DNA from: an uncultured Chloroflexia bacterium
Lineage (GTDB): Bacteria > Chloroflexota > Limnocylindria > Limnocylindrales > CSP1-4
Reading direction: 5' to 3'
Assembly: GCA_963819655.1 (NCBI GenBank)
Contig: CAWFXA010000002.1
Span: 256,001-320,000, forward strand
Length of the DNA stretch: 64,000 bases
Each line of letters starts with the position of its first letter. The stretch's first letter is position 1. The notes below the pieces were generated by a model. The model made no database searches, was not told the origin of the DNA, and saw nothing but the letters and a program-made list of their open reading frames with translations. A program made the translations under genes and the position numbers. This document shows positions 13,680 to 45,505 of the stretch, in pieces.

Positions 13680-13716
13680 CTAGAGCAGCTCCCCGTGGCC
13701 TGACGCGGTCGGTTCG
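13680..13716 (-). repeat. Displaced copy of the kamA 3' end (att-like direct repeat, left copy)
   Basis: CTAGAGCAGCTCCCCGTG identical to 45468-45485; minus strand encodes EPTASGHGELL*. Confidence 0.85.
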
Positions 13717-13724
13717 TCACATCC

Positions 13725-14480
13725 TCAGGCTCCTTGGAATGGGCCAACGATGAACATCGAAGCGTTCAGCGTGACCTGCCCCGCGGCAGCGGGATAGATA
13801 GACCCGGTCGCAATCGTTGCGAACCCGAACATGAATGTCGAATACAGCCCGAGTAAAAGGACCGCCGGTGATGTACCGACGACCGAGACAGCTGCAAAGA
13901 GGATGCTGGCGAATGCCATACCTCGCCACAGGCCGAAAACCCGCACTGCTGAGGTATGCAGCAATCCACGGAAAAGGGCAGCCTCGACGAGTGCTCCGAC
14001 CACCAGAGCCGTCATGGCGACCAGCAGCTCGTCTGGTTCGGTCGGATCCCCGACCAAAGGTAGCGGCTTGACCAGATCGTAGGCGAACAGACCGAGGGCG
14101 ATACATCCCGGGAGCATCACGAGCGCAAGTGCGACGTCGAAGGGCTTGATGCGAAGTCCTAGATCCCGGGGCGCGATCCGAGCCTCCCGAGCTGCCACGA
14201 AAACAGCAACGAGGGTGGGAAAAGCGACCAACAGGTATCGGATCGATAGATCCATGTCTGGAGGAAAAGCTGTCAAAGCCACGAGCTGGACTAATGGGAT
14301 GACCGCCAACGCCTGGAGCAAGGCCCGTCTGTCGCGGTCGACGGTTGCGATCGCGACGTTCAGGATGGCCAGGAATGCAGCAGCATGCATGAACGCTCCA
14401 GGTAGCGATCCTCCGGTGATCGCGACCACCTGAGCGAGAAGGACCAAGCCAGCGAGGAGGACAGCGTCATGCTTCTTCAC
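13725..14480 (-). CDS. CPBP (type II CAAX/Abi) intramembrane protease homolog, catalytic motifs degenerate
   Basis: PRDLGL, LVEAALFRGLL (canonical EExxFRG), SILFAAVS (canonical FxxxH), TGSIYPAAAGQVTLN (canonical HxxxN). Confidence 0.75.
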   Translation of the reverse strand: MKKHDAVLLAGLVLLAQVVAITGGSLPGAFMHAAAFLAILNVAIATVDRDRRALLQALAVIPLVQLVALTAFPPDMDLSIRYLLVAFPTLVAVFVAAREARIAPRDLGLRIKPFDVALALVMLPGCIALGLFAYDLVKPLPLVGDPTEPDELLVAMTALVVGALVEAALFRGLLHTSAVRVFGLWRGMAFASILFAAVSVVGTSPAVLLLGLYSTFMFGFATIATGSIYPAAAGQVTLNASMFIVGPFQGA

Positions 14481-15304
14481 TGGCTCGGCGCCGCATCGAC
14501 CCAGAGCCGAAGCCGGCGAAATGGTTCAAGCGAGTCCCCCTTGTACAGCACTACGGCGAGTTGCTGGTCGACTCCCGCGCTCGGCACGACGAACTCGACG
14601 GAGCCTCGCCACTCCTCCTCCTCGTCGAGCGCCATCGGTCCGGTCGTCCCTGCCGTCTCGGCGCCGAGAATGACATCCACACGAAAGGTCGTCGGCCTTG
14701 CTTCGCCATTCACGATGCCGATGTTGAGCACTGACGGTCTGCCGGCCACTACCTGGCTTGGGTAGTTCTCCGACAAGCCCTCGACGCCAAGGGCGTAGAA
14801 CTCGGTCGCGCGAGAAGGAGGGTACAGAGCCAAACTGATTCCCCCACCAGCCAGCGCGAGGATGACTACCAAGGTGAACACGGGGAACGGGACACCAGCC
14901 AACCGTGTGGGAAGCGCCGAACCATCCCTGGGGATTGCTGCCTGTGTGCTTGATCCATGACCCGGCGTTCGTCGCCGCCATTCTGCGATTAGGCAAAAGA
15001 CAACAGTCATGCAAGCGACGCCGACGATAGGGACGGCCTCAGAGCGCCAGGGTACCCACAGGAGGAGGATGGCTGCCACGACGATCAGGGCCAGTGAAAG
15101 CCCGAAGGCGAGCGCAAGGCGCTCCGGGATGTCGAACTCCGCGTCCGGGAAGAGAGCGATACTGAGGGCGTAACCGGGGAGGAACAGTGTCGCCGCGAGC
15201 CCAGGCAGCACCCTGATCGGGTCTGGGGCGCCCACCAAGGCTAACGTCGCGGCGACGACGGTCCCCAGTAAGACCCACCTGACGTCCACAGAGATTCGGC
15301 TCAT
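14477..15304 (-). CDS. DUF1616-type membrane protein
   Basis: LFLPGYALSIALFP, ERLALAFGLSLAL, TEFYALG..ENYP, IGIVNGE, PFRRLRLWVD. Confidence 0.8.
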   Translation of the reverse strand: MSRISVDVRWVLLGTVVAATLALVGAPDPIRVLPGLAATLFLPGYALSIALFPDAEFDIPERLALAFGLSLALIVVAAILLLWVPWRSEAVPIVGVACMTVVFCLIAEWRRRTPGHGSSTQAAIPRDGSALPTRLAGVPFPVFTLVVILALAGGGISLALYPPSRATEFYALGVEGLSENYPSQVVAGRPSVLNIGIVNGEARPTTFRVDVILGAETAGTTGPMALDEEEEWRGSVEFVVPSAGVDQQLAVVLYKGDSLEPFRRLRLWVDAAPSQ

Positions 15305-15311
15305 CGGTGCG

Positions 15312-16454
15312 TCAGACGGCCAGCTTCCGGTCTTGGAGGACTTGCCTGTATATGGCGACCGTCCTGGCGGCCACGGAATCCCAATCGAACATCCTGGCTC
15401 GCTTGAGACCTTTGGCCCTGAGTCGCTGCCGCAGGAGCGGATCTCGTGCCACGCGCTCCATTGCTCCGGCAAGAGCGCGTGCGTCGGTCGCATCGACGAG
15501 TAGGGCAGCTCCTCCGGCAACCTCAGGGAGCGATGCGGCGCTCGACGAGATCACGGGCGTGCCGCAGGCCATCGCCTCAAGGATGGGCAACCCGAAACCT
15601 TCGTGCAACGACGGGAAGACGAGGAAGTCAGCCGCGCTGTAGACAGATGGGAGATCGGTATCGGCGACATATCCAGTGAGCGCCACTCGATCCTCAAGAC
15701 CCTCCCGGGTGATCATGTCCGCAACGCCGCCGTCATCCCACATCGGTTGACCGACGATCGCCAGGCGATGCGGCACGGTCGACGGGTCAAGCGCACCGAC
15801 GGCCGCGATGAGGGTTCGAAGATTCTTCCGCGCCTGGAGGTTGCCGACGGTGAGCATGTATGGGGGCCGCAGCCCGTAGCGCGCGGCAACTGCCCTCGCC
15901 TCGTCGTCTGGGATCGGGCGAAACGCGTCGCCAACGCCATTTGGAACGACGTGGAGACGCTCCGATGGGATTGAAAGGTACCGAATGAGATCCGCGCGCG
16001 CGTACTCGCTCACTGTGATCACAGCGTCGGTGTTTTGCACGGTCGTCGGAACGTATCGACGATGCAGCACGTTGTTGAGCATCGGATAGCCCTTCGGAAA
16101 GCGAAACGCGATCGCATCGTGGATCGTGACGACGCGACGAAACCTTCCCCACGCAGCGGACAGCGTAAATGGACAGACGCCGGTCGGATCGTGGACGAGA
16201 TCGAGCTGCGCCCGGCGCGCCGCATACGCGATCAGTGGGCCGCCGAGGGCCATCAAACCGGGAAGCCTGGCGCAGCCGGGCAAGTGAAACGAGGAAACGC
16301 CGAGCTCGTCGGTGAAGGGACCCTGTCGATACGGTCGCAGGAAGACCACCTGGCAGTCAGGGCTTCGATGCAGGGCCGACCCGAGTTCCATGGCGACGCG
16401 CGAGATACCCGAGAGCGGTCGGTCCAGCCCGTACGTCACGAAACCGATCCGCAT
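15312..16454 (-). CDS. Glycosyltransferase family 4
   Basis: VVTIHD, VGNLQARKNL, FPSLHEGFGLPILEAMACGTPV. Confidence 0.93.
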   Translation of the reverse strand: MRIGFVTYGLDRPLSGISRVAMELGSALHRSPDCQVVFLRPYRQGPFTDELGVSSFHLPGCARLPGLMALGGPLIAYAARRAQLDLVHDPTGVCPFTLSAAWGRFRRVVTIHDAIAFRFPKGYPMLNNVLHRRYVPTTVQNTDAVITVSEYARADLIRYLSIPSERLHVVPNGVGDAFRPIPDDEARAVAARYGLRPPYMLTVGNLQARKNLRTLIAAVGALDPSTVPHRLAIVGQPMWDDGGVADMITREGLEDRVALTGYVADTDLPSVYSAADFLVFPSLHEGFGLPILEAMACGTPVISSSAASLPEVAGGAALLVDATDARALAGAMERVARDPLLRQRLRAKGLKRARMFDWDSVAARTVAIYRQVLQDRKLAV

Positions 16455-16515
16455 TGGTCGGGCACGAGTGCGATCCAACGAAGGGGTGGCCCTGTCCGTT
16501 TGTGATTGAGGCGAC

Positions 16516-19500
16516 CTAGGGACGAACGCGATAGACCTGGACCGTGCCGTTGTCATATACGCGGTCCTCGTGGATGATCGCCGGCAGGGTCCAACCCGAT
16601 CCGCGACGCCTGCAGACGAACGATATCGGAGATGATGATCGCCCGGACCGCAGGATCAGGCTCGCCCTCGGTCCACCGATTGGCGTTCCCAGGGATCCGG
16701 ATTCGGTCAGGTAGGCAGCAGCGAGTCGCTCGTCAGGTCCGATCCAGGTTGCCGTGCTCCGCTGGTGTGTATCAGCCCATCGAAGCCCCGCGATCTCCGC
16801 CGATGTGTAGAACGTCCACTTGTTGCTCACCGCCGGCTCGTTCGACGCCTTCAGGATCGAGGCGAGCGCGAGTCCGGCGAGCGCGATCCCGCTCGCGAGA
16901 CGAAAGATCGGCGTTGGGACGGACCCGCGCAAGACCGACGCCGAGCAGCCCGGCCGCCAGCGTAGCGAAGGGGACGAACGCTCGATACTGGAGGTTGCCG
17001 CCGAGCACCCCAGTCCGGTCCACGACGCTGAAGACAACGACCGCGAAAGCAAAAGCCGCATAGAGCAGCCACAGTGTCCAGACCCCATAGGATGGGACCT
17101 CGCCTCTCAGCCAGCGTGCCCCGAGGGCGAGCCAGACGATGGCGGATCCGAACGCGATCATGAGATTTCCGGCGCTAAGAGCGAAGAAGACTTCGGAGCT
17201 CACCCACGCCGAAGGGATGCCGGCGTACGGGTCGACAGCCGGGTCGCTGCCTGAGAACAGCTGGGCGAGCTCAGCCGGGATGCCACTCGCGACGTTGAGT
17301 GTATGACGCGCCGGTGGATAGATCCGCGAGGATGAAGATCAAGACCAACATCCATGCAGCGACAGCAAGCCAGCCGAGCTGGATCCCACTCGTCCGGGCG
17401 AACCGATGCATGGGGCTGAGACGCGACACGGCCCAACTCGCAAGAGCAGCCACGGTGAGTGCAGCCGCGACCGACATCCCGTACAAGACATTGGTCGCGA
17501 TCAGACCGTACGCCGCCAGGAGGATGACGATCGTATGTATCGTGGACCGAGCGGGCGTATCGGCGACACGAGCCCTCCTGACCAAGAACCACACGAGGAG
17601 GAGCAGAAAGACTCGATCCATCCGCTCGTGGCTGCCGCGGAGCATCGTGAACAGATGCTCGGGGATGATGAGCAGGAGCAGGGTTGCGATCGCCGCAACT
17701 CGACTATTTCCGCCGATCTCCCGGTAAGCAGCCCACGCGGGCAGGACCACGACCGCCGATACGAGCGGATATATGAGTTGCTGGAGCTGGCGACTATCGA
17801 GACCGGTGAACCATAGGATCACGGCCGACACGGCTGAGTAACCGTAGCCGCTCGGATAGACCGTGCCTCCCTCGGGCGTGAGAGTCCCCGTTCGAGCAAC
17901 GTTGCGGATCGCGTCGGTCATGAGCGCGGAATCCGTCTCGGCCCAATTCCCGCCCGGTCGGACCACGAAATAGACGCCGGCGAGCAGCGCGAAGCCGGCG
18001 ACACCGACCAGCCATGAGCTCGGAGAGCCATGGAACGTTTCCGCAACCGCAGCAAAGTCGGGACGTGCTCGGTACTTGTGCATGAGCCATCGCGCCCGAT
18101 CCATCGCACGCAGGTCCCTGGGCGGGGTCAGGTTCGACCAGTGCTCTGGAAGTCGGCGGATGCCGGCGCGAACCGTGATGCCAGCGCGAACCGTCAGGAA
18201 GGCTGCGGTGAGCAACGTCAGCCCGGCCAGGAACAGTACGGGTGATAAAAGACCCTGAGCGGACACGATGCTAGGGAGGTCGGCGACCGGCGCATCCTTG
18301 ACCGTCACGATCGATGCTCCGCCGTCGACCTCTCCGACCGCGGCGTGGATCCTCCACGGCCCGGCATCGGGAGGTGTCCATTCGACATTTGCCGTCGACG
18401 TCGTGCCACTCAGGACGTCGATCCGACTCGACCCGATCACGACGGGCTGCCATCGCTCCGCATCCGCGATGAACGTGACGGCCGCGCCGTGCATGTCTTC
18501 GCCGCCGAGGTTGGCGACGGCTGCGGAAAGGCCGATCGGCTCGAGCTCGTCGCCCGTTTCCTGGATCGCGGACACTTTCGAGACTTCAAGCCGCGCCGGC
18601 GTCAAGGGTCGCGTGTCGTACCCGGCGTCCGGCGCGTACTCCACAAGATGGGTGCCGGGCGCGTCGATCCCCTCCCACGGCCGAGTCTGGCGCTCGCTCG
18701 ACTCAAGCACGAAACGGAATCCATCATCGATCAGTCGGACATCCCGGATGGCCGCGCCGGAGAGTGACCGCGGCGAGTCCGCGACGGCGTCGAACATGGC
18801 GCCGAGGTCGTCCGGCGCGATGGAATCGTCGGGATCGTCGAGCAGCGTGCGCAGCTCTTTCCACTCCTCGTGGTCGCGGGGAGGCGCGAACGTCGCCATC
18901 GCTTGCGGTTCTGAGAACGTCCCGACCCGCATCCCGGCCGAGTCGCTGAACAAGATCTGGTCGGCCGCCACAAAGAGACTCTTGATCCGTCGACCATCTT
19001 GGAGAACAGTCCAGTGGTTGATGTGTTCACCACCAAGGTTCTCGTACCGGATCTGACGACCTCGACCGAGATTCCACACGCCGCCGTCTGCATTCACCAG
19101 ATGGGCGCGGCGATCGATCGGGCTAAGGTAGATGCGCGCTTTCCCGTGAAGGTCGAACGCATGCTCACCCCTGAAGCCCTCGCGGATCTGCGCGAACGTA
19201 TCGATCGGCGGCCGATCAGTCACGCCGGCCACGTAGTCGATCAAGGATCCTCCGTCCGCTTCGGGTGTGTATTCGTACACGTGTTCGGAGGTCCAATAGG
19301 GGGCGATCACTTCGACAAACGTCGCGGCCTCCCACGACTCCTCGGAGACCCATCGGGGAAGGGCGTCAGGTGGCACGGCGGTGACGGCAAATTCGCCGAA
19401 GTCGATCGTGTATCGGACCGGCTGCTTGCCCACCAGATTCAACGAATACGTCCAATTGTGGGAGTGGGATCGGTCCCAGGTGTACATGACCGTGTTTATC

Positions 19501-20693
19501 GGGTCAGCATTGGGTAACTCCCGGATACCACCCGGTAGCACGCCGATGAATCTGATGGTCGTGTCCGGCCATCCGTCGCCGGTGGCCGCGAGGTCATAGA
19601 ACGCGAACGGATTCTCGAAGTTAGTGGTAGTCGTTGATCCTTCCTTTACGCGGTTTATCGAGTAGATGAAGAAACTGCCCGGATTGCCCCGCGAGGCGAC
19701 GAACTCGGAAATCTGGGTGATTCGGGCGCTTGCCCAATCGACATGGATCGGCGGCGGGCTCGCCCGATAGTCTTTCGCGTACTGCCCGACAGGTTTCGCC
19801 TGCAACGCGAGGTAGGGCCATAGAAAACTCCCCGTGATCGCGACCTCGTCGCCTTGCGGGTTACTGACGATCTCGGTCCGGAAGTGCTCACTCAGAGCGG
19901 CGTCTTCCGGGAACGGTGGATAGAACTGCCGCCACTCCAGCTCCGGCCGTCCATCGCCGTCACGATCACGGGCGTGAATCCTGTAGTCCGGGCGGCCGTC
20001 GCCTTCTAGGTGGGTGTACGCTTCCGGGTCTCCCAGCGACGCTCCGAACGAGGCGCGCAGCGGGCCATCAACGAGGATGTCGAGGTTGAAGCTCGTTCGT
20101 CCACCTTCGGTCCACCAGCCGTCGCGTGACGTGATGCTCACGGTCGGGTGGGGGCTCTCGACGATGCGCGGCATACCGTCGGCCAGGAGGAAGTCGACGC
20201 GACCGTTGCCGTCTCGATCATCGTAGAGGTCTGCCACAGGACCGGTCTGGCTGTAATGGAAGTCGATGATCAGGGTCGGGCGGCTGCCGCCGGCCTCGAA
20301 CACCCAGATCGCATCCTCAGTCCGGTCGGAGGATGGGCTGCGGAGATAGATGGACACGGTGTCGTGACCGGTGGCGAAGCCTGGCTCGCACGTGAGGACG
20401 ATCCGTCCCTCAGACGCGCGAGTCTCGGCGCAGCGAGGAACGGGCAGCGCTTCGATCCCGGAAGTCCCGGAAGCCGTTGCGAGTGACAACGCCGTCAGAA
20501 CTATCGCGAGAAGCGCGTGGGCCGCGACCACCCTCGGATGAAGCAGCCCTCGAGGCCCCCACATAGCAGTACCGGTTGGGCGTGGGGGATGTGGCACCGC
20601 GCGAGGAGGTCGAGGCGGCGGTATGGGCACGTCTGGCTGCTCCGGGACTGCGGAACGCCGATGATACGTGCCACCACGTTTTGGAGCGTCCAC
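16516..20693 (-). CDS. Large exported/membrane protein: DxDGDG-motif domain + CARDB-like Ig domain + multi-TM GT-C-like (DUF2206/DUF6541-like) region; several frameshifts in the 3' part
   Basis: ORFs 17271-20693, 16772-17203 and 16516-17088 joined; signal-like ALLAIVLTALSLA, DRDGNG/DRDGDG, VANLG..VEWTP, W.ETD and YPSGYGY, terminal RVYDNGTVQVY; true start uncertain and may be two genes. Confidence 0.6.
18159..18194 (-). repeat. 18-bp coding tandem duplication (TVRAGI)x2
   Basis: GATGCCGGCGCGAACCGT / GATGCCAGCGCGAACCGT. Confidence 0.85.
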
Positions 20694-20774
20694 CGCCCCC
20701 TGGGCACCTTATCGACGGCGCCGTGGATCCGCGCGGACCGACCTCGTTTCGCGCTTCTCGCGGAACCTCTCCTG

Positions 20775-21743
20775 TCAGACGGTGCGGAGGAAGAACGTCG
20801 CCTGATCGCCCTTTTCCGCCCGGTTCAGCGCATCGGCCTCGCGCTTCCAGGCTGCGACTTGGTTGCGGCCGAAGATAGGGCTCGTGCCGCCGTGAGGTGG
20901 GTCCACGCTGCGCGGATCGGAGAGCGGGATGTCCATGCGGTACTGCTCGCTGCCCCAGAACTGAAGCGCGGTCGAGTCGTACTTCGTCCCGACAACGTCG
21001 AAACCGCACGCGCGCGCGAGCTTGGTGAAGCTTGTCGGCGTGTGGAGGTAGTAGTGACGGGGCGGGTCAAGCTGAACCCAGTGTTCCCGGTAGCGCCGAA
21101 AGGCTTCGGCGCGAGCGGTAGCCGCACGCACAGCTGGGTTTTCGGCCGGCAAGCGAGCGGAGCTCGCCGAGCACGCGGCGTTGCTCCCGGCATGTGCTCG
21201 AGGCTGTGGCTCAAAAGGATGAAGTCCGGCTGTCGCTCGACCTCGTCGAGCTTCCTTCTGATCACGAAGCCCGATTGGCGTCGCAAGGCGTCACTCGCGA
21301 ACGGATCGACCCCTTCGAGCTTCGTGAAGCCGTCGCGCCAAAGCATGGATAAGAGAAGCCCATTTCCGCAGCCCACGTCCAGGATGGCGCTCTGAATCCC
21401 ATCCGGGCGAACTTCAGCCAGTCGTAGCACTGGCCGAGCCGAGCAGCCTTACGAGCGCGAGCCCGAGCGGGTCCTCTGGCCGAGGGCGTAAGCCGCGCGC
21501 TTTTTCTGAGCCAGCGCTGACGCGCTCGAAGGAGCTCCGACGGGGCAGGACGAGTCAAGGAATAGTAGTCGCTCGGTGCAGTCAGCTCGCGATGTTCGAC
21601 GGGTACTCGGCGATCTGCACGCAACCGCAGCTCGGACATTCGAGGTACTCGAACATGTCACGGCGGCCGAACATCATCTCCCGCGCCACGATGGGCGGAC
21701 CGCTGATGCCAGCCCCGCAGATGCGGCAGGATTTCGTGCTCAT
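20775..21743 (-). CDS. Class I SAM methyltransferase with N-terminal Zn ribbon (frameshifted)
   Basis: MSTKSCRICG..ECPSCG, ILDVGCGNG, GVDPF, HSLEHMP, WVQLDPPRH across three frames. Confidence 0.8.
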
Positions 21744-21854
21744 GGACAAGGCGTCGGCAGTGATTGCTCGGATTGTAGGCGCCCGCTTGATACGTCTACG
21801 TCGCCTTGAAAGTCAAGTCCCCGTGCGGCATGAGAGGCCGGGGGATAGCTCCTC

Positions 21855-23624
21855 TTACGGGAGATGCCGGAAGATCCGACCGTCGCCGCCTCGGAATGGG
21901 ATGGGTTCGCCGAAGGCGAACGTCTGGCCCGACTCCACATCGAGCAGGCGACCGGACAACGAACTGGTGAGCGTCACGTCGCGCGCAGCGCACGACGTAT
22001 TCGCTGTGACGACGTATCGCACGCCGGTTGCGTCGGTCATGGTGCTGGCGTAATTCGCACCGGCGAACACCTGATCGGCCTGCTTCGTGAAGCTCGGCAA
22101 GGCCGCGGTCCTGCTAGCGACGTCGCCGACCTCGGCATAGAGGGCGGGTTGATCGCGCAGCCCCAGCCAACCTTGCTGGCTCGAGTAGATGAACCACCAT
22201 ATCCCTTGCGCGCCTTCGCCGAGCGCGATCCAGTTCTGGAGGCGAACCTCCTCGGCGCTCGGATACCTGAGCTTCGTGCCGACCGGACCGAACGTCGTTT
22301 GGTGGGTCTGGAGAACGAGCCAGAGCGGAACGCTCGCCGGTTTCGTGCGCGTCGTGTAGCGGATCTCGTCAACGAATGTTCGCGCCCATGAGCAGGGTGT
22401 CGTTGTCTCGTCGGCAGGGTAGTTGTACGTCAGGAACGCATCGGGCCGCACATAATCGAAGACCTGCTGGCCAAAATCGCTCTCGACCATCATCGGGGAG
22501 GCCGGCCGCCCTGGATCGCGCTCACGGAAGACCTCCACGGCCAGGCGCATCAGCTCGTTCTTGTCCGGCGTCGCGTCATCGACCAGGTTGTAGCCACGGA
22601 TGCTTGGGTGGACCTTGAGTTCGTCCACCATCGGCCCGATGATTTGTCGAGCCGTTGTGATGTTCGGAGTCGCCGCAAGGTTCCACCATCGCTCGTAGAG
22701 GTCGCCCATCATCCAGGACGCGTAGACAGGGAAGTCTTGGGCATCGGAGACGTCGGCCAGAGGAAGCTGATGGAGGAAGCCGTTCGTGAACATCACCGAC
22801 GGGATGTTGCGCAAGCGCAGGTCGGTGATCATCGCAGCCATCGCGCTCGCGCTGCCGACCATCCCAGCGTCCTCGAATACGCCGTACGCGATCGGTGTGC
22901 CTGACGGTGCGGCCGGCATCGGCTTGGACGTAGGCGTGAGCGTCGGGTGCGGCGTCGGATCCATCGCCGGCATCGGTGCGGCGCTCGGCGCAGACAGGGC
23001 GCTCGGCGCTGGCTGGGTCGTAGGCTGAACAGGAGGCTGGTCCCGGACACTTCGAACCACGATGGCGTCAATCGCTACCATCGCATGGCCTTTGGTCCCC
23101 ATCACCACGATGGTGAGCCGTCGGGCCCTGACGCTGCCGAATGTGGCCTTGAACAGCACTCGAGTCGGTCGGAAAACCGATGAGTAGGTATCGACGGTCT
23201 TCGCGTACTTGCCGTCGATGTACACCTTGGCCTTGCCTCGAGTCGGCCCCACAGGTCCGATCCAAGCAACGCCGTCGCCGCTGAATTGGAATGTGGCTCG
23301 CGCGAGCGCGTCACGCGAGGATCTCGCCTTACTACCCATGTAGCGCGGATATCTCGCAATGGTCCAACGTCCACGGTACGAGAAGCGGGCGCTACCTTCT
23401 TGATACGTCCTGACCGTTCCAGACTCCGACCAATTCGAGACCAGGGTCGAGACGGGTGGCGGAGTGCCCGCCAAAGTCTGCTCGTTCGGCACGACGAGAC
23501 CGACAAGGGCGATAGCCATCACGCCAGTGGCAAACCAGTCCCGAATCCGCCGACGAGGCTTCGAAGGCGGTACCTGAGCCTCGAAGACCCAATCCCTGCG
23601 GTCGGCGATCCGGACGTTTCTCAA
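21855..23624 (-). CDS. Secreted protein: galactose-binding-like domain + Pro/Thr linker + glycoside-hydrolase-like TIM barrel
   Basis: Signal ATGVMAIALVGLVV; GPTRGKAKVYIDG..VAIDAIVV domain; HPSIRGYNLVDD, PLWLVLQ, WIALGEGAQGIWWF. Confidence 0.65.
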   Translation of the reverse strand: MRNVRIADRRDWVFEAQVPPSKPRRRIRDWFATGVMAIALVGLVVPNEQTLAGTPPPVSTLVSNWSESGTVRTYQEGSARFSYRGRWTIARYPRYMGSKARSSRDALARATFQFSGDGVAWIGPVGPTRGKAKVYIDGKYAKTVDTYSSVFRPTRVLFKATFGSVRARRLTIVVMGTKGHAMVAIDAIVVRSVRDQPPVQPTTQPAPSALSAPSAAPMPAMDPTPHPTLTPTSKPMPAAPSGTPIAYGVFEDAGMVGSASAMAAMITDLRLRNIPSVMFTNGFLHQLPLADVSDAQDFPVYASWMMGDLYERWWNLAATPNITTARQIIGPMVDELKVHPSIRGYNLVDDATPDKNELMRLAVEVFRERDPGRPASPMMVESDFGQQVFDYVRPDAFLTYNYPADETTTPCSWARTFVDEIRYTTRTKPASVPLWLVLQTHQTTFGPVGTKLRYPSAEEVRLQNWIALGEGAQGIWWFIYSSQQGWLGLRDQPALYAEVGDVASRTAALPSFTKQADQVFAGANYASTMTDATGVRYVVTANTSCAARDVTLTSSLSGRLLDVESGQTFAFGEPIPFRGGDGRIFRHLP

Positions 23625-23723
23625 TTGCGATCGATCTCCTAGCTGGCTGTCTGCTCAGCGGAGCACGTCGATGCGCATCGCTGGGAGCGTGGCGGGGCGC
23701 GGCGCCTCGAGAGCGATGCGACG

Positions 23724-35304: not shown

Positions 35305-35307
35305 GGA

Positions 35308-35535: not shown

Positions 35536-35603
35536 GGCAATCGTCTCCCCCCGATCGCAACTCTTAGGTGGCGACCCCCGCTCGCCTTCGTTCTCCTAGC
35601 CCT

Positions 35604-35633
35604 ACTCTAGACTCCGGACGACCAGGACGACAA
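35604..35633 (-). promoter_or_regulatory. Possible sigma70 promoter for the small-protein/GT operon
   Basis: Minus strand TTGTCG-18 bp-TAGAGT. Confidence 0.35.
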
Positions 35634-35699
35634 GTACCCGTGCGTCGGGCCCAAAAAATGCAATGCGGCCCTTGCGCTACGGCGCGAGCGTTCTTCGGA

Positions 35700-35850
35700 G
35701 TGTGGCGCATCGCCAATTCGCCGCCTGGCCGCGAGCTCCCACCGTGACGCCGTCTGTGCGAACACGCTCTCGACCGCGGCCTCGAGGAAGGGCACCGTCG
35801 CGTCGAGGAAGATCGTAACGACGCGACACGATCTGCGGAGGCGTCACACG
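35700..35850 (-). pseudogene. Truncated N-terminal fragment of a GT2
   Basis: TIFLDA..PFLEAAVESVFAQT..RWEL, then homology stops before the DDGS motif. Confidence 0.55.
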
Positions 35851-36822
35851 ACGCGGATCCGGGCATGACGCCACAACAGACGGCCGAAGCCCTCCCCGTC
35901 GACATCCTCGACGAACAGGCGTGGCAGCGTGAAGCGGTCCGCTCCGTGACGCACCGTCCCCGGCGTGGCCATGAATGCCTGCATGAATCCCGCCAACCGG
36001 ACGGCCCGTTGCCCGTCGCCGACGTCCGACTTGCCACCGTGCGGATAGGCGAATGACTCAACAGGACGGCCGATTCGATCCTCTAGCTCGGCACGACCAG
36101 AGTCAATCTGGGCGGTCGTGGCGTCCGGGGTCAGCCCCGCCAACCAGGCGTGGTCGGCCGTGTGCGAGCCGATCTCGAGGCGGTCGTCGCGTGCCAGCTG
36201 ATCCAGCTCGCCTGACGTGAGCGTCCGGTGGCTCGGTCGTGGTGTTGCTGGCATGCCCGCCCACGCAAGGAGTGATTCTGCGGCGCGATCACGAACACCC
36301 GGCAGCTGCCGGCGCAGGAGCGCCCAGACCTCCCGATAAAGCGCCGTCCGTGAGGCCGCGTCCTGAGGATCGATCGTAACGCGCTCGCCACCAAGGCTGA
36401 GCCGGATGGGTTCGCTCGGCCTATTGGGCCCGAGGAGTGCGCGCTCTACCTGATCCCACCAGAACTCGCTCTCGCGGTCAATCGCCCGAGACACCAGAAA
36501 GGCAGTCGCCCGAAGGTCTGCGCGTGACAGCCGTGGCTGAACCTCGTCCACGAGATCGGCGTAGCCGTCGTCGAATGTGATAACCACTGTTCGCGGTGGA
36601 AGCCGGCGTCCCTCGAGCGCGCGCCCGAGCTCCGCAGCCGTCATGATCGTGCACGACCGGGCTAGGACGTCCAGATGCTGGCCGAAGTGCTCGGGTGTGA
36701 CTGCCAGACGCCAAGGGTCGGTACCGCGCTGGCCGATCCGGTGATACAGGAGCACCAATGCGCCGCGCCGGGCGGGCGGAGCTGATTGCCCATCGGGCCT
36801 GGCGCAGCGTAAGACTCATCAT
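35844..36822 (-). CDS. Polysaccharide deacetylase (NodB-like; frameshift near 36765)
   Basis: VLLYHRI, VITFDDGY, IGSHTADH, FAYPHG, LPRL. Confidence 0.88.
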
Positions 36823-37143
36823 TCGCCTGTCTGGAGCTTTAAGCAGCGGAAGCGCGCTTCATGCACAGGATATTCATGAACCGCGCGATCGGTTCGCCCG
36901 GAGCTCATCGGCCTCGTCGGTGCACTGAGCTAGGGTGACACTCGCGCAAACGGCTTGTGACGAACCTCGAGACCGCAGACTCATGCTCGCCAGTCCTATA
37001 TGGATGCGGGAAAAGAGCTGCCGCTTTCGCGCATCGTCTGGCCGGAACATCACGCAAAGGCAGCCGCCGCAAGGCGCGGCGTGGCTTACGACAAGAGTGG
37101 CGGGCTCCCCCATCAGCTGAGAAGGTATTCGCAAAACAGGGCG

Positions 37144-38262
37144 ATGAAGGACCGAACGGCCATCCAGTACGTCGATGCGCTCGAGTTCGGCGGTAGCGAG
37201 CGCGTCGCGTTGACCCTTGCGGCAGGGATCGGAGCGACGCGCGGCTGGCGATCGGTGATCGCATATCACCGCGAACCCGCGATCGCCCCCCTTGCGTCCG
37301 AGGCGCGAGCATTGGGAATCGAAACCGTTGCCCTGCCGGCGCGCGGAGTCAAGCGGCTTGGCGGCTTAGCTTCGTTCGCAGCCCATATGCGCTCGACGTC
37401 TCCTAGCGTATTGCACGCACACTTGCCGAACCCACTTGCGGCACGTGGTGGCCTCTGGGCGGCCGTCGCCGCGAACCCACCGGCTGTGGTTGCGACTGCG
37501 CACCTCGATGTACCGCTGCGCCGTTTCTGGCAGCGAGCGCGAGCGCGGGCGGTACGCGTGGACCACTACGTTGCTGTCTCGGAAGCGGTCGGGGACGGTC
37601 TCCGCTCGTTGGGCATCGACGTCAACTCGATCTCCGTAGTCCATAACGGCCTGCCTGATATCGAGGCATATGCCGGCAGCAAGGCTGGCACGGTTCGGAC
37701 CGAGCCTGCGCATACGGTGGTTACGGTCGCGCGACTCGTTTCCCAGAAGGGACATCGGGTGCTGCTGCAGGCTTTGGTCACCCTGCCGGGCGTCACGGTT
37801 CTGTTCGCCGGCGATGGACCGCTCCGCGCTGATCTGGAGAAACTCGCAAGGGAGTTGGGCGTCGCCGATCGAACGCGGTTCCTTGGGAACGTCGCCGACG
37901 TACCTGGACTGCTCGCGGGAGCCGACGTCTTTGCCCTGACTTCATTCAACGAAGGGTTGCCTCTATCGATCCTGGAAGCGATGGCGGCCGGCCTGCCGGT
38001 CGTGGCAAGTCGTGTCGGCGGAACACCAGAGGTCGTCGCCGATGGCGAAACGGGGCTTCTCGTCGTGCCCGACGACCCAGCGTCGACGGCTTACGCCATC
38101 CGACGCCTTCTGGAGGACGCCGCGCAACGCGAACGTCTGGGGAAGCGAGGCCAGCGTCTAGTTCGCGAAAGGTTCACCGCAGCGAAGATGGTCGAAGGCG
38201 TGATTGCAGTCTACGAGGATGTTCTCGCGCGGCGTAGCGGTAGGCGAGTTCCCGTCGGCTGA
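37144..38262 (+). CDS. Glycosyltransferase family 4
   Basis: FGGSER, VARLVSQKG, GDGPLR, EGLPLSILEAMAAGLPVV. Confidence 0.92.
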   Translation: MKDRTAIQYVDALEFGGSERVALTLAAGIGATRGWRSVIAYHREPAIAPLASEARALGIETVALPARGVKRLGGLASFAAHMRSTSPSVLHAHLPNPLAARGGLWAAVAANPPAVVATAHLDVPLRRFWQRARARAVRVDHYVAVSEAVGDGLRSLGIDVNSISVVHNGLPDIEAYAGSKAGTVRTEPAHTVVTVARLVSQKGHRVLLQALVTLPGVTVLFAGDGPLRADLEKLARELGVADRTRFLGNVADVPGLLAGADVFALTSFNEGLPLSILEAMAAGLPVVASRVGGTPEVVADGETGLLVVPDDPASTAYAIRRLLEDAAQRERLGKRGQRLVRERFTAAKMVEGVIAVYEDVLARRSGRRVPVG

Positions 38263-39343
38263 TGGTGCGTCGGGTGAGGTCGAACGGTGCCCGAGACGGG
38301 AGACCCTTGCCAGACGTCAGCGTCGTGATCCCGACGCGGGATCGTCGCGATCTACTGCTCGAAGCGCTACGCGCGCTGGCTACTCAAACCCTGGCGACCG
38401 AACGTTATGAGGTCATCCCAGTCGTCGACGGTTCGGCGGACCGGACCGTCGAAGCTCTCGCCGAGCTCGAGCTTCCATACGTGCTCCGGCAGATCGTTCA
38501 GCCACCCAAGGGCCGCGCCGGAGCGTGCAATACCGGGATCCGGGCTGCCGAGGGCACGATCATCGTGCTGCTCGACGACGATATGGTTCCCTCCGCGGAT
38601 TTCCTGGCCGCGCACCTTCGAGCGCATGCGGCCGGTGATCACCTTGGGGTGCTGGGGCCCGTGCCCATCCTCCACGGCATGGAAGGCAACGCCGTGGAGC
38701 GGTATGTCGCCAAGAAGTTCGATCGCCACCTAGCGAGGCTCGCATCAGGAGTGCCGATCGGTTTCCGCGAACTGTATACGGGCAACTTTTCAGCACGAGC
38801 CTCCGACCTCCGCCGGGTGGGACTCTTCGACGAGAGCTTCACCGTCTATGGGAACGAAGACGGCGAGCTCGGTATCCGGTTGCTTGAGGCCGGTGTCAGG
38901 CTTCGGTACGACCCTGCTGCCCTGGCGCGGCAGCGATTTACGAAGACGTTCGCGGACCTCGCCCGGGACAACGAGGCCAAAGGCCGCACCGCCGTCATGC
39001 TTTCGAGAAAGCATCCGCTGGCGATCTCCCAACTGAAGCTATCGGCACGGCCAACCCGCCGGCTCCGCCTGGCCGCGCAACCCTGTTCTCTTTGACGCGC
39101 GTTTCGTCGCGGCTGCCTGAAGCGTTGGTGGCCGGCTTCGGAATGCTCGAGCGGGTGTCGCCCTCCCTGGCCGAGTACTTGTGCCCCGCGATCCTCGATT
39201 ACTTCTACTGGCGCGGGGCTCGCACTGAGGCGCACGGCGCGGACTACTCCGCGGAACACGTGCGGCCGGCGGAGGCGAGTCGGAACGCGCTGCTGCGACG
39301 GGCCGACTGGCGCCTCCTCTGCCAGACCCGAGCCCCGTCATGA
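38262..39343 (+). CDS. Glycosyltransferase family 2 (frameshift near 39090; may run into the next gene)
   Basis: SVVIPTRDR, VVDGSAD, LDDD, TGNFS, FDESF..YGNEDGELG. Confidence 0.8.
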
Positions 39344-40772
39344 CGGTTTGCTACGACCCCGCGCTTCGTCGTGCTGCTGCGCTCATGTCTGCGCACCTCA
39401 TGGACCCGTCTGACATGCCACAGGACTGCGATCTAGCAGTCTTGGTGAATACACGGATCGGCGCGCGCTCGCATCCGCCCGAGAAGCGCTCAAGCTAGCC
39501 GGGCGGCGTGTGTTATGTGGAATGGGGTCCGCTGAAGATGATCAGATCAGACGTGGCCGCGCGTAGGCTGACGCAAGCGGGGTATGGTTCCGTTCGCTGC
39601 TACTGGCCGTTTCCGCGCCGCGGCGCTGCACACGTGTGGCTGCCATTGGACTCGCCTTCCGCCATTCGCTATTACCTCGCGACCCGGGCATCCCGACCGT
39701 ACTTCCCCACCCGCTTGGCACACGCTGTCGGCCATGCGATCGCAGCCCTGGCCATTCGAGCCGGCGTGGCCGGGACCATCGTGGCCGTCGCCCAGAAGCC
39801 CGCCTCGCTGGCGAAGAGGAACGGTCTTCGACGCCACAGCCAGCTCACGGCAGTTGCTGCTGACCGGCGGGCCAAGGTCGACCAGCAAGGCGGTAAGCGT
39901 CGTCTTTGCGGGGCCCGACCCGTTTCCGGAATCGATCGTCAAGATGAACCGGACGCCTGAAGCACGTGCTGGCATCATGCGCGAGGCCGAGATGCTCCGC
40001 TATCTGGAGCGCGACCGGTCGAGCCTAACGGGCGTCCCACGTGTCGTTTCCGTCGAAGACCTCATAGACGTCACTCGCGTCGTGGAGACCCCCCTTGAGG
40101 GCAGACCCCTGCACGGTGAGCTGCGGCGCGAGAACCTCGCCAGGAACGCAGACATGGTCACCGAGTGGGCCCTCGGATTGGCGGGTCTGGAGCCACGGGC
40201 ATCGGCCGACGCACTGTGGTCGGAGCTGGCAGATCCGATCGTTGCCCGTTTCAGACGGGCCTACGGTCCGGAACTGGATGAGCGGGAGTGGCAGGAGAGC
40301 CAGCGCATCCTTGCCGCCCTCGACGACATGCCCATCGTCCCGGAACACCGCGACTTCGGACCGTGGAACATGCTTATCGATCACGGGCGTCTTGGGGTGC
40401 TCGATTGGGAATGGGCCGTTCCGCGCGGCCTTCCCGCACTCGATCTCCATCTACTTCATTTTGTACGCGGTCGGATATGCCACGGGGGTCCGACGCCATC
40501 GCCGACTCCTCGATGTGTATCGCGCGGTCCGAGACGTGGATACGCCGTTCGGCGCTCTGGCGAACGACGCGCTTCGCCGATATTGCGGTGCACTTGGAGT
40601 CGATCCTGGCCAACTTAGGGCGCTCCACCTTCTCACGTGGATGGTGCACGCGCCATAGGAGCATCGGCGACAGATCGAGGACGCTGGCAGCCGAAGCCTC
40701 CGCCACGTTGGAGTTCAAAGCTTCTTCGTTGGTCTGTGGAGGATGGAGCTCGCAACTGGCCAGCGAGGATGA
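39280..40772 (+). CDS. Aminoglycoside/choline-kinase-like phosphotransferase (multiple frameshifts; start approximate)
   Basis: RRADWRLL, LLLTGG, IVKM.R, EHRDFGPWNMLI, GVLDWE, GLPALDL. Confidence 0.65.
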
Positions 40773-41524
40773 TCGGGCGTGTGGTGCGGACGATCACGGA
40801 GGTGGCATACGAGTCCGTCCCGCGTCGGGTCCGTCGTCGGATCCGTCGGCTTCGCAAGCCCGCATACGTTGACAGCCTTCGGCGCACGACTCCCTTGAGC
40901 GATCAGTGGGGATACGATCGGGGCAACCCGGTCGACCGCTATTACATCGAGTCCTTCCTCGAAGAGCATCGGGCCGACATCAAAGGCCGCTCACTCGAAG
41001 TGATGGACCTCCGCTATGTCGACCGCTTCGGTTCAGGGGTCACAAGGCGGGACGTGCTCGATGTCGATGCTTCGAACCGTCGCGCGACGATCGTCGCCGA
41101 CCTGGCCGATGCGACAACCATCCCCGATGACTCATTCGACTGCATCGTGCTGACGCAAGTGCTTCAGCTCGTCTTCGACGTTCGGGCTGCAGTCGCCCAC
41201 CTCGAGCGGATCCTGCGGCCCGGCGGCGTCCTCCTCGCGACGGTTCCTGGGATCAGTCGCATCGGCAAACGCGAACAGGCTACGGACCTCTGGAGATTCA
41301 CGCCCGTAGCCTGCCGCCGACTCTTGGAGGCCAATTTCGATTCCGAAGAGGTCGAAGTGCGGTCCTACGGCAACGTCCTGAGCGCCAACGCGTTCCTGAC
41401 CGGAATAGCAGCCGAGGAGCTCTCGAGGCAAGAGCTTGACACCTCAGACCCCTCGTATCCGGTCATCGTGGCGGTACGCGCCCGGAAGCGCGACACGCCC
41501 CTCCCTGGCTCGCGGCACGAGTGA
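40769..41524 (+). CDS. Class I SAM-dependent methyltransferase
   Basis: WGYDRGNPVDRYYIE, ATIVADL, FDCIVLTQVL, LRPGGVLLATVP, DLWRFT. Confidence 0.88.
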   Translation: MIGRVVRTITEVAYESVPRRVRRRIRRLRKPAYVDSLRRTTPLSDQWGYDRGNPVDRYYIESFLEEHRADIKGRSLEVMDLRYVDRFGSGVTRRDVLDVDASNRRATIVADLADATTIPDDSFDCIVLTQVLQLVFDVRAAVAHLERILRPGGVLLATVPGISRIGKREQATDLWRFTPVACRRLLEANFDSEEVEVRSYGNVLSANAFLTGIAAEELSRQELDTSDPSYPVIVAVRARKRDTPLPGSRHE

Positions 41525-42419
41525 CCGCGCACGTGGTGCCTGGCTCATCCCACATCGTGGCGACACGCAACCGGCCCGGCCTGCTCGCCGATGCTGTCGC
41601 CTCGATCCTGGCGAGTGATTCGCTTCCAGCCAGTTCGTCATCAGTCGTTCAGAGCGACGCGCCCCATCCGCAGCTCGGCGAACGCTTCGTCCAGTCGCGG
41701 GCATCGAGATTCGCTACTTCTGGAGCCCTGGCGTAGGGCTTAGTCGTGCGAGGAACGAAGGCATCGATAGGGCCCACAACGAACTACTCTCCTTTACGGA
41801 CGACGACATGCTCGTGCCGCCGTCTTGGTAGGACCTTTATCCGACGCACTCGCTCGATCTGGTTGGTTCGATCCGTCATCACCGGTCCCGTGTTGGCTGC
41901 GAGGCCCGAGCGACCAGGCGCGTTCGCGCCATCGACGAGTTCAGGAGTGAGCCGTCGCACGTACATGGGACGCGTGCCGGATGACGTACTGTTCGCCGGC
42001 AACATGGCCATTCGTCGGGCCGCGTTTCGCGAGGTCGGTCCATTTGATGAGCGCCTCGGGCTCGGCGCCCGCTTCCCGGCGGCAGAGGACGATCAGCTTC
42101 GCTTATCGCCTTCCGGGCTGGCTACCGGATCATGTCGGAGCCAGATGCCGTCGTGTTCCATCGCGCCTGGCGAGATCGACGTACCTACCTTTCCGCTCCG
42201 ATGGCGGTACGGACGCGGGCAGGGTGGCTATTTAGCCAAACACCTGTCCCGAACGGACTTCTTCATGTTCGCGGATTTGTCCCGTACGAGCTGGAGTCAC
42301 CTGGCGGGCATCCATTCCTTGCGACGGACAGCATGAAGGCCGTCGGTAACGTGATCTTCGCGATCGGCGTGTTGACCGCGGCATTCGAATGGCTGCTGAC
42401 GCAGCGCGGGAAGCCCTGA
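41521..42419 (+). CDS. Glycosyltransferase family 2 (heavily frameshifted)
   Basis: IVATRNRP, TDDD, GNMAIRR, GPFDERLG.G..AED, YGRGQG. Confidence 0.7.
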
Positions 42420-43956
42420 TCCGTGGACGCGTCCTCCGCGGCGCGGCAAGCAATATGGTGGGCCAGGCGATCGTGGTTCTCACCGCGTTCGTCCTCACTC
42501 CCTACATCCTCAACCAAGTAGGGCCGGTCGGTTACGGACTCTGGATCCTCGTCGGGTCGCTCGCTGCATACGGCGACCTGTTCGATCTGGGCATCAGCGC
42601 CTGTCGTCAAGTACGTCGCGCAGTTCCGGGCGCAGGCCGACCGGGCGATGGAACGGGCCATCCTGGCATCGGCCCTTCGACTGTACCTGGGGCTGGGAAC
42701 GATCGTCCTGATCATAACCCTCGGCTTCGCTCCGCTATTTCCACTGATCTTCAATTTGCCCGATGAGACTCGATCGACCGCGAGTCTGCTCGTTGTGCTT
42801 CTGGCGTGAACCTCGCGGTCTCGATCGTCTCGGCACCAGCGTTGTCCGTCCTCACGGCCTTACAACGATTCGGGTGGTCCAACGTCGTCCGAACTGGCTC
42901 CATGATGCTGTGGGCTCTCGCGACCGTGATCGTCCTCGAGGCAGGAGGCGGGGTCGTGGCCATGGTCGCCGTCAACATCCCGGTGACCCTGCTCATGCGC
43001 GTGGTCTGCGTCCGGCTGATTCCGCCGGCGCACCGATCTTGCCTTCGGCTACCGTGGCGCCAGCCGGGCCTCCATGCGACAGCTTGTCGCGTTCGGCGGT
43101 GGAGTCGTGCCTGCCAGATCTCGGATCTGCTACAGCGCAAGAGCGATGAGCTGATCGTGGCGTTGTCACTCAGCGTTGCTGCGGTCACCCCTTACGCGCT
43201 GGGTCGGCGACTCAGCGAGCTTCCACATCTCGTTGCGAATCAATTCGTTCGCGTCCTGCTCCCGATCGCTGCTGAGTTGAGCGCTCAGGAGGAGATCGAT
43301 CGGTTGCGGACGCTCTATATCGTCGCCACCCGGGTCACGGTCGCGATCTTCACCTCGATCGGCCTCGGCGTGGTCCTGCTCGCCGAGCAGATCCTCATCG
43401 TGTGGGTGCATCCCGGCTATGAGGATGCGGTACCGGTTGTCGTCATTCTGACGATGGCGAGCTATTTGGTGACCAGTCAGTGGCCGGCCGGCGCCGATCG
43501 TGCCGGGGATGGGACGATTCCGGCTGGTTGCGCTTCGTCGGTCGCGTCTGGGATCGCGAACGTGGCGCTCTCGATCTCCTCGTCCAGAGACTGGGCTTGA
43601 TCGGCGTTGCGATCGGGACCCTCCTGCCGACCGCGGTGGAGGCGCTTGGGTTCGTCCTTCCCTACACGATGGTGACGCTGCGCGTTCCGCCACGAAAAGC
43701 GCTCGTCGAGATTTGGCTTCCATCTGTGCTACCAGCGCTTCCGGCCGGGATGATCATCCTCGCTCTGCGGGAGGCCTTTGCGCCGACGTCCCTGCTGGAC
43801 TTGGCGTTTGTCATGCTCGCCGGCATGCTTGTGTACGTTGGCAGTTACTTGGCCATCCCGACGACGGCCTTGGAGAGACGCATGGTTGTCGATGCCATAC
43901 GCAAGGCTGCCTCGGCGGTCGATCGCGGCGCGTCGGAACCACCCACCGTGCGATGA
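42389..43956 (+). CDS. Wzx/MOP-family flippase (frameshifted)
   Basis: LTPYILNQVGPVGYGLWIL, FDLGI, AVTPYALG, QILIVWV, ANVALSI, LGLIGVAIGT. Confidence 0.8.
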
Positions 43957-44107
43957 CGACAGTCTCTCGGCCTCACAGGGCAGCCGAGACACGCGGTCCT
44001 GCGGTCGCCAAGGCCCCTATGAGAGCTCCCCAAGGGCCGACCCCGTCGGCTCGCCCCTTCCACGGCAGGGTCGTCGCCGTCACGGCGATCGTCGCCTCGG
44101 TAGACCG

Positions 44108-45207
44108 TCAGGCCTGACCCGCCACGACCGCGCGGAAGATGTCGACGTGCCGCTGCACGCAAGCAGCCCACGTGAACGCCTTCGCGCGCTCGATGCCGCG
44201 GTGCCCGAGCGCCTCGCGGTCATCCAGCGTCGCCACGATGCCCGCCGCGATGGCGTCGGGGTCGGTGGCGTCGAAGAGCACGGCCGCGTCGCCGACGATC
44301 TCGGGGAGCGACCCCGCGTCGGAGGCGGCGACCGGGCAGGCGGACGCCATGGCCTCCAACGGAGGCAGGCCGAAGCCTTCGTAGAGGCTCGGGAATGCGA
44401 GCACCGCGGCGCGCTGGTAGAGCGAGATCAGCTCGCTACGTGACACCAGTCCGCGGACGTCGACCCAGTCGGGCAGGTCGGTGAGGCCCTCGAGCGCGGC
44501 ACCGGTCAGGACGAGGCGCATGCCGGGGTGCGTGCGGCGTACCGCCTCCATGGCCTGGACCAGGCGCCGGTGGTTCTTGTGCGGCCAGCCGCGCGCGGGG
44601 TAGAGCACGAAGTCCTCGCGCTCGCCGTGCTGCGGGACGAAGGACGACGTGTCGACGCCCAGGTGCGCCACGTGGACGCGGTCCGGGTCGACGCCGAGGT
44701 GGTGGACGATCCGCTGGCGCGAGAACTCGCTGATCGTGATCACGGTCCGGGCGCGACGGGTCGGGGCGTCGTAGCGGACGCGCCGGTAGAGGCGCTCGGC
44801 GGGCGAGAAGTTCTTCGGCTGGTCGAGGTGCTGCACGTCGTGCAGCTCGACGACGTGGGGCACACCCCGCGGCGGACGCGGTGACGGGACAGTGAGCGGG
44901 TAGTAGACGAGGTCGGATCCCGCAGCAGGCCGCGGGCGGTGGCCGACAGCTCGGCGCAGAGCTGCGACACGAGGCGGTCGAGGTTGGACGGGCCGCCCGG
45001 GACGTCCCCGACCACGCGGAAGGGTGCGATCTCGGTGAGACCCGCGGCGGCGCGAGGCACCCCCACCGTCAGGTCGACGAGGGGGTGCTCGTGCAGCCCC
45101 CGCGCCACCTCGGTGACGAACGTCTGGGTGCCGCCCATGCCTCCCGGCACCAGCGTCATGAGGGGGATGGTGACGGTCAGCGGGGTCGCAGGTGTGCGGT
45201 CGTCCAT
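44108..45207 (-). CDS. Glycosyltransferase family 4 (frameshift near 44925; very high GC3)
   Basis: PGGMGGTQT, LHDVQH, YPARGWPHKNH, FPSLYEGFGLPPLEAMA. Confidence 0.88.
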
Positions 45208-45467
45208 GGCGGCACCATCCTGACGGGTCGGGTCGGGTCGGCGCCCGATCGGCACCCCTCACGCCTCGCCCTGGCCCGCCACCGGGCCTGTTGCCGGCAA
45301 CATCGCCGACCTGCAACGGGACGGTTGGTCGACGGTCAACCCGACGCTTCAGCAGTTCCGGGTGGAGGCCGACCCGACGGGCTCGTCGGCCAAGCCGGCA
45401 ACGAGATCATCCAGCAGATCCTCGATCTCGTGGAAGCCGCGCGAGCCACGTCCTGAGTGGGATCGAG

Positions 45468-45505
45468 CTAGAGCAGCTCCCCGTGCGCCGACGCCGGTCG
45501 GCTCG
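45468..45505 (-). repeat. kamA 3' end (att-like direct repeat, right copy)
   Basis: CTAGAGCAGCTCCCCGTGCGCCGACGCCGGTCGGCTCG versus 13680-13716. Confidence 0.85.

Follow-up and report, generated by a model that had tools for sequence, protein, structure and literature searches.

Integrative islands may insert at the 3' ends of tRNA, tmRNA or protein-coding genes, where they are flanked by attL and attR repeats that carry the tail of the target gene. In O-antigen and capsule-type loci, variable polysaccharide genes lie between conserved flanks and are exchanged by homologous recombination. Here we describe a putative glycan island of about 31.8 kb that lies between rhaM (L-rhamnose mutarotase) and the 3' end of kamA (lysine 2,3-aminomutase family) in an uncultured Chloroflexia bacterium. 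The stretch of DNA analysed, hereafter the window, comprises 64,000 nt (G000:C2:256001-320000), where G000 is the genome under study, a metagenome assembly of 3,487,778 bp in 3 contigs that is 91% complete.

Among described systems, the closest is the att-flanked genomic island that targets a gene 3' end; all of its structural features are present in the sequence, and its recombinase is missing. In common with such islands, the block sits at the extreme 3' position of a gene that it leaves whole, is bounded by imperfect tail repeats with an identical core, deviates in guanine-cytosine (GC) content and corresponds to an empty site in close relatives. It differs from them in that no integrase, excisionase or known recombinase family is found in the island, that a related island in another genome, G064, lies at a different site without repeats, and that several cargo genes read as broken. 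The comparison with variable polysaccharide loci is likewise mixed. GT2 and GT4 transferases, flippases, sugar-modifying enzymes, a lower GC content and a patchy distribution are shared with them, and a second site, S2, behaves in this way. In contrast, the relatives examined show no such locus between rhaM and kamA, and exchange through flank homology leaves the duplicated tail unexplained.

The initial annotation of this DNA regarded a lysine 2,3-aminomutase gene as an unusual target, and this view needs to be corrected. The SPbeta-like prophages phi3T and phi12-5 are integrated inside kamA of Bacillus subtilis, carry their own integrase and directionality factor, split the gene internally at a 5-bp CCTAC overlap and allow it to be rebuilt by excision during sporulation (PMC6957869). 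The likeness lies in the target gene: in the locus studied here kamA is whole, the insertion follows codon -12, the cargo consists of glycan genes and no integrase is found, so that the features of such a prophage are lacking.

A limited literature search returned no earlier account of an island inserted in the 3' end of kamA. The locus offers a clean, datable case of a soil bacterium gaining a whole set of surface-glycan genes, in which the closest relative (94% identical flanks) keeps the untouched site. It adds the 3' end of a protein gene, kamA, to the list of island targets, and it raises the question of how 32 kb of DNA without a recombinase aboard could be inserted so as to duplicate 37 bp of the tail.

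An insertion between rhaM and kamA

We sought kamA in 40 relatives and the enolase-family gene adjacent to rhaM in 60, and then compared the neighbourhoods; the genus set comprised 131 genomes (G000 and 130 others). rhaM and kamA are adjacent in five relatives, and in four of these (G130, G021, G064 and G053) nothing lies between them. The two genes are convergent at the empty sites, and the arrangement predicted by the initial annotation for a site without the island, kamA tail to tail with the mutarotase gene, is therefore found in nature. The rhaM and kamA stop codons are closest in G053 (2 nt apart), followed by G064 (3 nt), G130 (6 nt on both of its contigs) and G021 (47 nt). The flanks of the island are 94.4% identical to those of G130, the closest relative, over 6,459 nt, and 83% identical to those of G064. 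G130 holds the x48883-kamA-rhaM-enolase region twice, on C10 and C15, each at about 93-97% identity to the window and with different kamA-tail alleles; probably two strains have been binned together. In G072, kamA and rhaM lie on separate contigs.

The left-flank alignment to G064 and G130 passes through a short orphan copy of the kamA 3' end into the real kamA tails of these genomes and ends at 13716, and the right-flank alignment begins at 45467/45468. The inserted island occupies 13717..45467 (31,751 bp) and has a GC content of 0.645, compared to 0.694 for the genome. We compared it with 106 genome segments of equal size in GC content and tetranucleotide use. None of the 106 is as low in GC or as distant in tetranucleotide use, making the island the most deviant 31.75-kb segment, so the comparison of inside with outside that had been suggested as a check agrees with a foreign origin. 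A 20-kb query of island DNA gave long matches in G064 only, all matches in the rest of the 130 other genus genomes being 377 nt or shorter, and the GT4 glycosyltransferase gene at the right end of the island was found in 2/131 genus genomes, G000 and G064. Searches that used a few exact peptide patterns, and are weak evidence of rarity, gave no match in genome contigs for the DUF1616 protein of the island, a match to G064's own contig only for the alignment of its large membrane protein, and no match in metagenome contigs for its CAAX protein and right-end GT4. Parsimony and composition together point to a gain in the G000 lineage after the split from G130, and we are highly confident that the 31.8-kb block is a real insertion.

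Among public sequencing runs, the best contains 0.21 of the sampled words from window positions 40000-49999. Four runs mapped to 35000-54999 at 88% likeness gave only short contigs of relatives, with the depth heaped on the conserved kamA. None of the listed run records spans the junction 45467/45468 by at least 31 nt on each side; X3 record 19 corresponds to 45325-45492 and reaches 25 nt into kamA.

The duplicated kamA tail and related insertions

Both island junctions carry the end of kamA. At the left junction lies copy A, an orphan kamA 3' end of 37 nt on the minus strand (13680..13716), which consists of the stop and 11 codons and reads in frame as EPTASGHGELL-stop. At the right junction, the real kamA terminates in copy B (45468..45505, minus strand). 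As assembled, this copy ends in SRPASAHGELL-stop, and removal of one base gives EPTASAHGELL-stop, the ending of most relatives; the extra base, at 45493, is absent from all relatives compared. The copies share an identical 18-mer, CTAGAGCAGCTCCCCGTG, at 13680-13697 and 45468-45485, and form direct repeats of 37/38 nt from the target gene's 3' end, with an exact 18-nt core and the target gene's stop kept. The positions, the 18-nt identity, the two KamA C-termini and the need for one indel are thus as the initial annotation had described them. A repeat search lists the pair as a direct repeat of 27 nt at 89% ungapped identity. With up to one mismatch the 18-mer occurs at two places in the window and at none in 100/100 shuffles, and with up to two mismatches it occurs only at these two junction sites in the whole genome. 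The likeness continues for about 19-20 nt past the 18-mer, with one indel, and the score observed over the 22 nt past it was reached by 0/2000 shuffles. All differences between the copies are confined to the 19 nt distal from the stop codon. Both 13680-13716 and 45468-45505 align with one and the same 37-nt stretch of the kamA tail in the relatives.

Compared with the G130 allele (G130:C10), copy A differs at 3/37 positions and copy B at 1/37 with one extra base. This is about what the flank divergence of 5.6% leads one to expect, so neither tail can be called foreign, and the suggestion that the element supplied a replacement tail finds no support. Among 16 relatives, copy A had seemed to resemble distant alleles more closely, and copy B those of syntenic relatives; this indication of a foreign tail was dropped once G130 was added and both copies fell within normal divergence. 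A longer duplication, of 45235-45467 against the end of rhaM, was rejected because 172/500 shuffles score equally well. A hairpin as recombination signal was also rejected: the functional tails can form a stem of 6-7 bp, with folding energies no better than those of shuffles (z -0.67 to 1.17). A tRNA as insertion target was discarded, as the window holds no tRNA. Xer/dif-type integration was considered too, but the kamA tail bears no obvious resemblance to AT-rich dif sites.

In the fifth syntenic relative, G024, 945 bp lie between rhaM and kamA (L037; G024:C1, 10741-11715) and contain two small genes unrelated to the island, for a SHOCT-like and a small DUF-type protein, names read from the translations without a library scan. 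Beside rhaM the kamA end is repeated over 16 nt, GCCTAGAGCAGCTCCC, in a form identical to the G021 allele (E 4e-5); likeness past these 16 nt is marginal (49/2000 shuffles). G024 has no other copy of the two-gene cassette, and G000 and G130 carry a homologue of 65-67% identity at another locus. This insertion leaves reuse of the kamA end possible. In 12 other relatives, with different kamA neighbours, the genes downstream of kamA encode a peptidase, a rhodanese, an oxidoreductase and similar proteins; no glycosyltransferase was found within 9 kb downstream of kamA and no second kamA-tail 12-mer within 20 kb. The initial annotation had envisaged a kamA-anchored site of exchangeable surface-glycan cassettes. 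This notion is not supported, given that four of the five syntenic relatives are empty, the fifth holds unrelated genes, none of the 12 others has a glycosyltransferase there and the G064 island lies elsewhere.

G064, another species of the genus, has an empty rhaM/kamA site and also contains a related island of 30.0 kb and lower GC on another contig. The G064 island is collinear with window positions 13724-40691 at 65-71% identity, with 20443-28872 not in common. Homology begins at the stop codon of the CAAX gene, 13724, and stops at 45234; the remaining 45235-45467 matches neither G064 nor the end of rhaM. The flanks of the G064 island map to C1 of G000, where they lie 180 nt apart (site S2, C1:483341-483520). 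Each genome is therefore empty at the other's site, which indicates that the island family has moved. The site in G064 is intergenic, and about 180 nt of G000 sequence there are unmatched in G064. Across the genus, 11 genomes have contiguous S2 flanks, and the flanks are separated by 6.5-6.6 kb in 2 genomes, by 16.7-23.9 kb in 7 and by 30.2 kb in G064. The inserts that we sampled include EPS-type clusters with Wzz, Wzy_C, GT2 and alginate-lyase-like genes (G020, G145) and genes for SpaA-like surface proteins of adhesin type (G021). Judged by these inserts, S2 is a variable surface-gene locus in which conserved flanks anchor differing clusters. A terminator-like hairpin with a perfect 14-bp stem (G064:C3, about 344,560-344,593) lies within the 200 nt at the left end of that island, on the outer side of the CAAX gene. 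The window has no counterpart of it, since only 8 nt separate the start of its island from the CAAX stop.

Route of insertion

That the block is inserted and the tail duplicated, where the block begins and ends and in which polarity, what it carries, its foreign composition and its lack of known recombinase families are established; what follows concerns how the block came to lie there. We tentatively favour a Campbell-type single-crossover insertion of the glycan island at the kamA 3' end. An envelope-glycan island of about 31.8 kb would have been acquired horizontally after the split from G130, by a single crossover in which the final 37 bp of the chromosomal kamA recombined with a short stretch resembling the kamA tail on circular incoming DNA. 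Such a crossover would leave the whole kamA at one end of the island (copy B) and a tail-only copy by rhaM at the other (copy A), the usual attL/attR layout of islands directed to gene 3' ends. In favour of this route are the empty sites, the alignment of one kamA tail of the relatives to both copies, the core found only at the junctions, a native kamA that keeps its stop, the deviant composition, the movement of the island family, the second insertion in G024 and the lack of a comparable repeat at two other window-specific segments. The recombinase that is absent from the island may have been lost or may have acted in trans; the circular intermediate, the crossover position and the nature of the enzyme are what we infer. 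With several genes that read as frameshifted, the island gives the impression of being fixed and in partial decay, not of active mobility.

Several results weigh against this route. No integrase, resolvase or transposase family was found in island ORFs (open reading frames) of at least 110 aa, either with the Pfam scan of 129 ORFs or with a looser scan of 18 unassigned ones. In six-frame translations of the genome, the tyrosine recombinase family PF00589 has 6 matches, of which none is in the island and the nearest, at C2:733,792, is about 430 kb off; PF00239, PF00665 and PF01609 have no match anywhere in the genome. The initial impression of a glycan cargo without a visible integrase is upheld by these scans. 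Neither tail copy is demonstrably foreign when compared with the alleles of relatives. The two insertions at the kamA end duplicate different lengths, 37 nt and 16 nt, which is a poor fit to one fixed crossover point. Related elements at the same attachment site were not found in other genomes, as the sole related island, that of G064, lies at S2. The ends of the G064 island have no flanking repeat (best 13 nt, E 0.73, compared to E 3e-6 for the window 18-mer in the same test) and no kamA-like sequence, so the island family is not tied to kamA.

Some of these results would be accommodated by an illegitimate, non-site-specific insertion that duplicated 37 bp of the target, both tails being native and having diverged since. 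We give this alternative appreciable, though lesser, credence; homology-facilitated illegitimate recombination, repair of a staggered break and replication template switching are possible routes. It requires no recombinase in the island and agrees with the absence of three of the four tested families from the genome, with tails that are 1-3 substitutions from the G130 allele, about as the flank divergence predicts, with an intergenic, repeat-free island in G064 opposite about 180 nt of unmatched G000 sequence, and with duplication lengths that differ between the two kamA-end insertions. The frameshifting 1-nt insertions that cluster by both junctions (13659; 45493-45618) would fit as well. However, a duplication of 37 bp is long for break repair, and both independent duplications start at the same nucleotide, that of the kamA stop codon, which is unexpected from chance breakage. 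Two other window-specific segments lack a comparable duplication, and kamA shows no donor-derived 3' part of the kind expected had homology to a distant donor anchored the recombination. A further possibility, which we consider unlikely, is that insertions land repeatedly at the stop-codon end of kamA through a recombinase that the cargo itself lacks, either a host enzyme or one encoded elsewhere in the genome. Surface-gene blocks normally found elsewhere would then be moved to kamA without an integrase of their own. Both cases fit such a landing pad, and in each the genome with a block at kamA lacks the block at its usual place, S2 for the island and the other locus for the two-gene cassette. 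More speculatively, the clustered +1 insertions at the junctions and in the island could be footprints of error-prone repair synthesis during insertion.

Two explanations that dispense with a recent insertion carry far less weight. That the structure is an assembly artefact, in which two strains were chimerically joined or the island was misplaced, is very improbable, although a 3-contig, 91%-complete metagenome assembly with four odd 1-nt insertions near the junctions and several frameshifted island genes gives some ground for it. A mis-join through the kamA tails of two strains, which the initial annotation had raised, is unlikely: the exact repeat is just 18 nt, and past 13716, beyond the 37 nt of copy A, there is no likeness to kamA, so that a repeat-mediated mis-join cannot yield junction A. 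As S2 is contiguous and empty in G000, two coordinated errors would be required, and G024, an independent assembly, has the same kind of structure. We attach the least probability to an island that is ancestral here and was cleanly lost from the relatives, perhaps when the tail copies recombined. Recombination of copy A with copy B would recreate exactly the rhaM/kamA layout of the relatives. On the other hand, the four empty genomes range from the closest (G130) to distant ones (G064, G053) and have spacers of 2-47 nt, so that several independent losses would be needed. The composition of the island, the most deviant in the genome, also speaks against an ancestral origin, as do the restriction of the marker GT4 to 2/131 genomes and of long DNA matches to G064.

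Island cargo and flanking genes

By its gene content, the island is predicted to be a cell-envelope glycan cluster. Pfam assigns to it four GT4 and four to five GT2 glycosyltransferases, an AsnB-like amidotransferase, a polysaccharide deacetylase, two to three methyltransferases and an APH-like kinase, together with membrane proteins that comprise a 12-segment Polysacc_synt flippase, a partial second flippase and DUF1616 and Rce1/CAAX-like proteins. The assignments below are from Pfam unless stated otherwise. The left end is formed by minus-strand genes for the Rce1/CAAX-like protein (13725-14480) and the DUF1616 protein (14477-15520), with 8 and 5 hydrophobic segments, respectively, followed on the same strand by a GT4 glycosyltransferase (15312-16556) and a large membrane protein (16519..20693). 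The latter contains a 1140-aa ORF (17271-20693) without a Pfam family and is 63% identical to a 1142-aa homologue in G064; its pieces lie in frames -3, -1 and -2, the C-terminal multi-pass part being in the two other frames.

The block 20825..28849 has no counterpart in the G064 island, where it falls in the alignment gap. It holds minus-strand genes for a methyltransferase (20825-21430), a 589-aa protein of unknown function (21855-23624) and the AsnB-like amidotransferase (25125-27065), and plus-strand genes for a GT1 fragment (24073-24564) and the flippase with 12 hydrophobic segments (27569-28849). On the minus strand there follow a GT4 gene (28835-30157), a GT2 gene (30016-31155), an unknown gene in two frames (31152-32604), two GT2 genes that each extend over two frames (33245-34431 and 34289-35304) and the polysaccharide deacetylase gene (35844-36758). 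Plus-strand genes then encode a GT4 (37000-38262), a GT2 (38262-39095), the APH-like kinase (39584-40618), a methyltransferase (40637-41524) and the partial Polysacc_synt_3 flippase (42806-43600).

The GT4 gene at the right end (44108..45316, minus strand) has a host-like GC content of 0.73. It is 81-83% identical to its G064 counterpart, which is inverted and moved within the G064 island and reads as split there. At least 4 island genes extend over two or three frames where G064 has intact ORFs of 1142, 478, 356 and 345 aa. These frameshifts, near 16917, 17323, 32018, 33976 and 34715, reflect either decay of the island or a locally poor assembly.

In the left flank, an enolase-superfamily (MR_MLE) gene (12060..13340, plus strand; MR_MLE_C, 1.4e-64) is 94-97% identical to its counterparts in G021, G024 and G130, which adjoin rhaM, and is thus conserved and syntenic. 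It is followed by rhaM (13346..13667, plus strand; Pfam rhaM, 2.2e-33, on the ORF 13271-13753). In the frame of the relatives, rhaM stops at 13665-13667, 12 nt ahead of copy A, and to this extent the spacing of about 12 bp given by the initial annotation is right; in the assembled sequence, one nucleotide inserted at 13659, compared with G021, G024 and G064, carries the frame on to 13753, across copy A. The insertion lengthens rhaM by about 29 codons.

To the right of the island, kamA (45468..47054, minus strand) encodes 528 aa with LAM_C (PF12544, 7.7e-38) and Radical_SAM (PF04055, 3.8e-11) domains. Its translation carries CASYCRYC, a CxxxCxxC cluster motif, as expected for a radical-SAM enzyme with a LAM_C domain, and a function of this kind is predicted. 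Owing to three +1 insertions (45493, 45599 and about 45608-45618), some 40 codons of its C-terminal extension, which is non-catalytic, are read out of frame; the frame is regained ahead of the stop. In a sliding comparison of identity, G021 and G024 are nearest throughout the gene, without a breakpoint. The same nearest relatives along the whole of kamA argue that the gene body is native, and a mosaic kamA with a donor-derived 3' part was rejected for lack of a breakpoint.

The four 1-nt insertions (13659, 45493, 45599 and about 45608-45618) cluster beside both junctions and are unique to G000 in a comparison with G130, G072, G021, G024, G064 and G053. Each adds G or C, at positions that vary between G and C among relatives or in a short C run. 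These insertions may be real or may stem from consensus errors in a mixed population. No frameshift occurs in the flanks across 6.4 kb of coding sequence compared with G021. Annotators should treat with caution the orphan tail, the lengthened frame of rhaM and the scrambled C-terminus of kamA.

Two further segments are specific to the window. One, of about 5.9 kb (1395-7271), is missing in the otherwise collinear regions of G021, G024 and G130. The other, of 1.74 kb (47141-48882), lies just upstream of kamA; it is missing in G021, G024, G064 and G053, and in G130 its length is only about 457 bp. The best matches between segment ends are 9 nt (E 0.26) for the 1.74-kb segment and 15 nt at 93% (E 0.017) for the 5.9-kb segment. 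Since neither has a comparable repeat, tail duplication is not a general feature of insertions and deletions here. The 1.74-kb segment, which has no Pfam family, encodes a 337-aa lipoprotein-like protein with a signal peptide, a Cys and a Pro/Thr-rich linker, together with a truncated paralogue.

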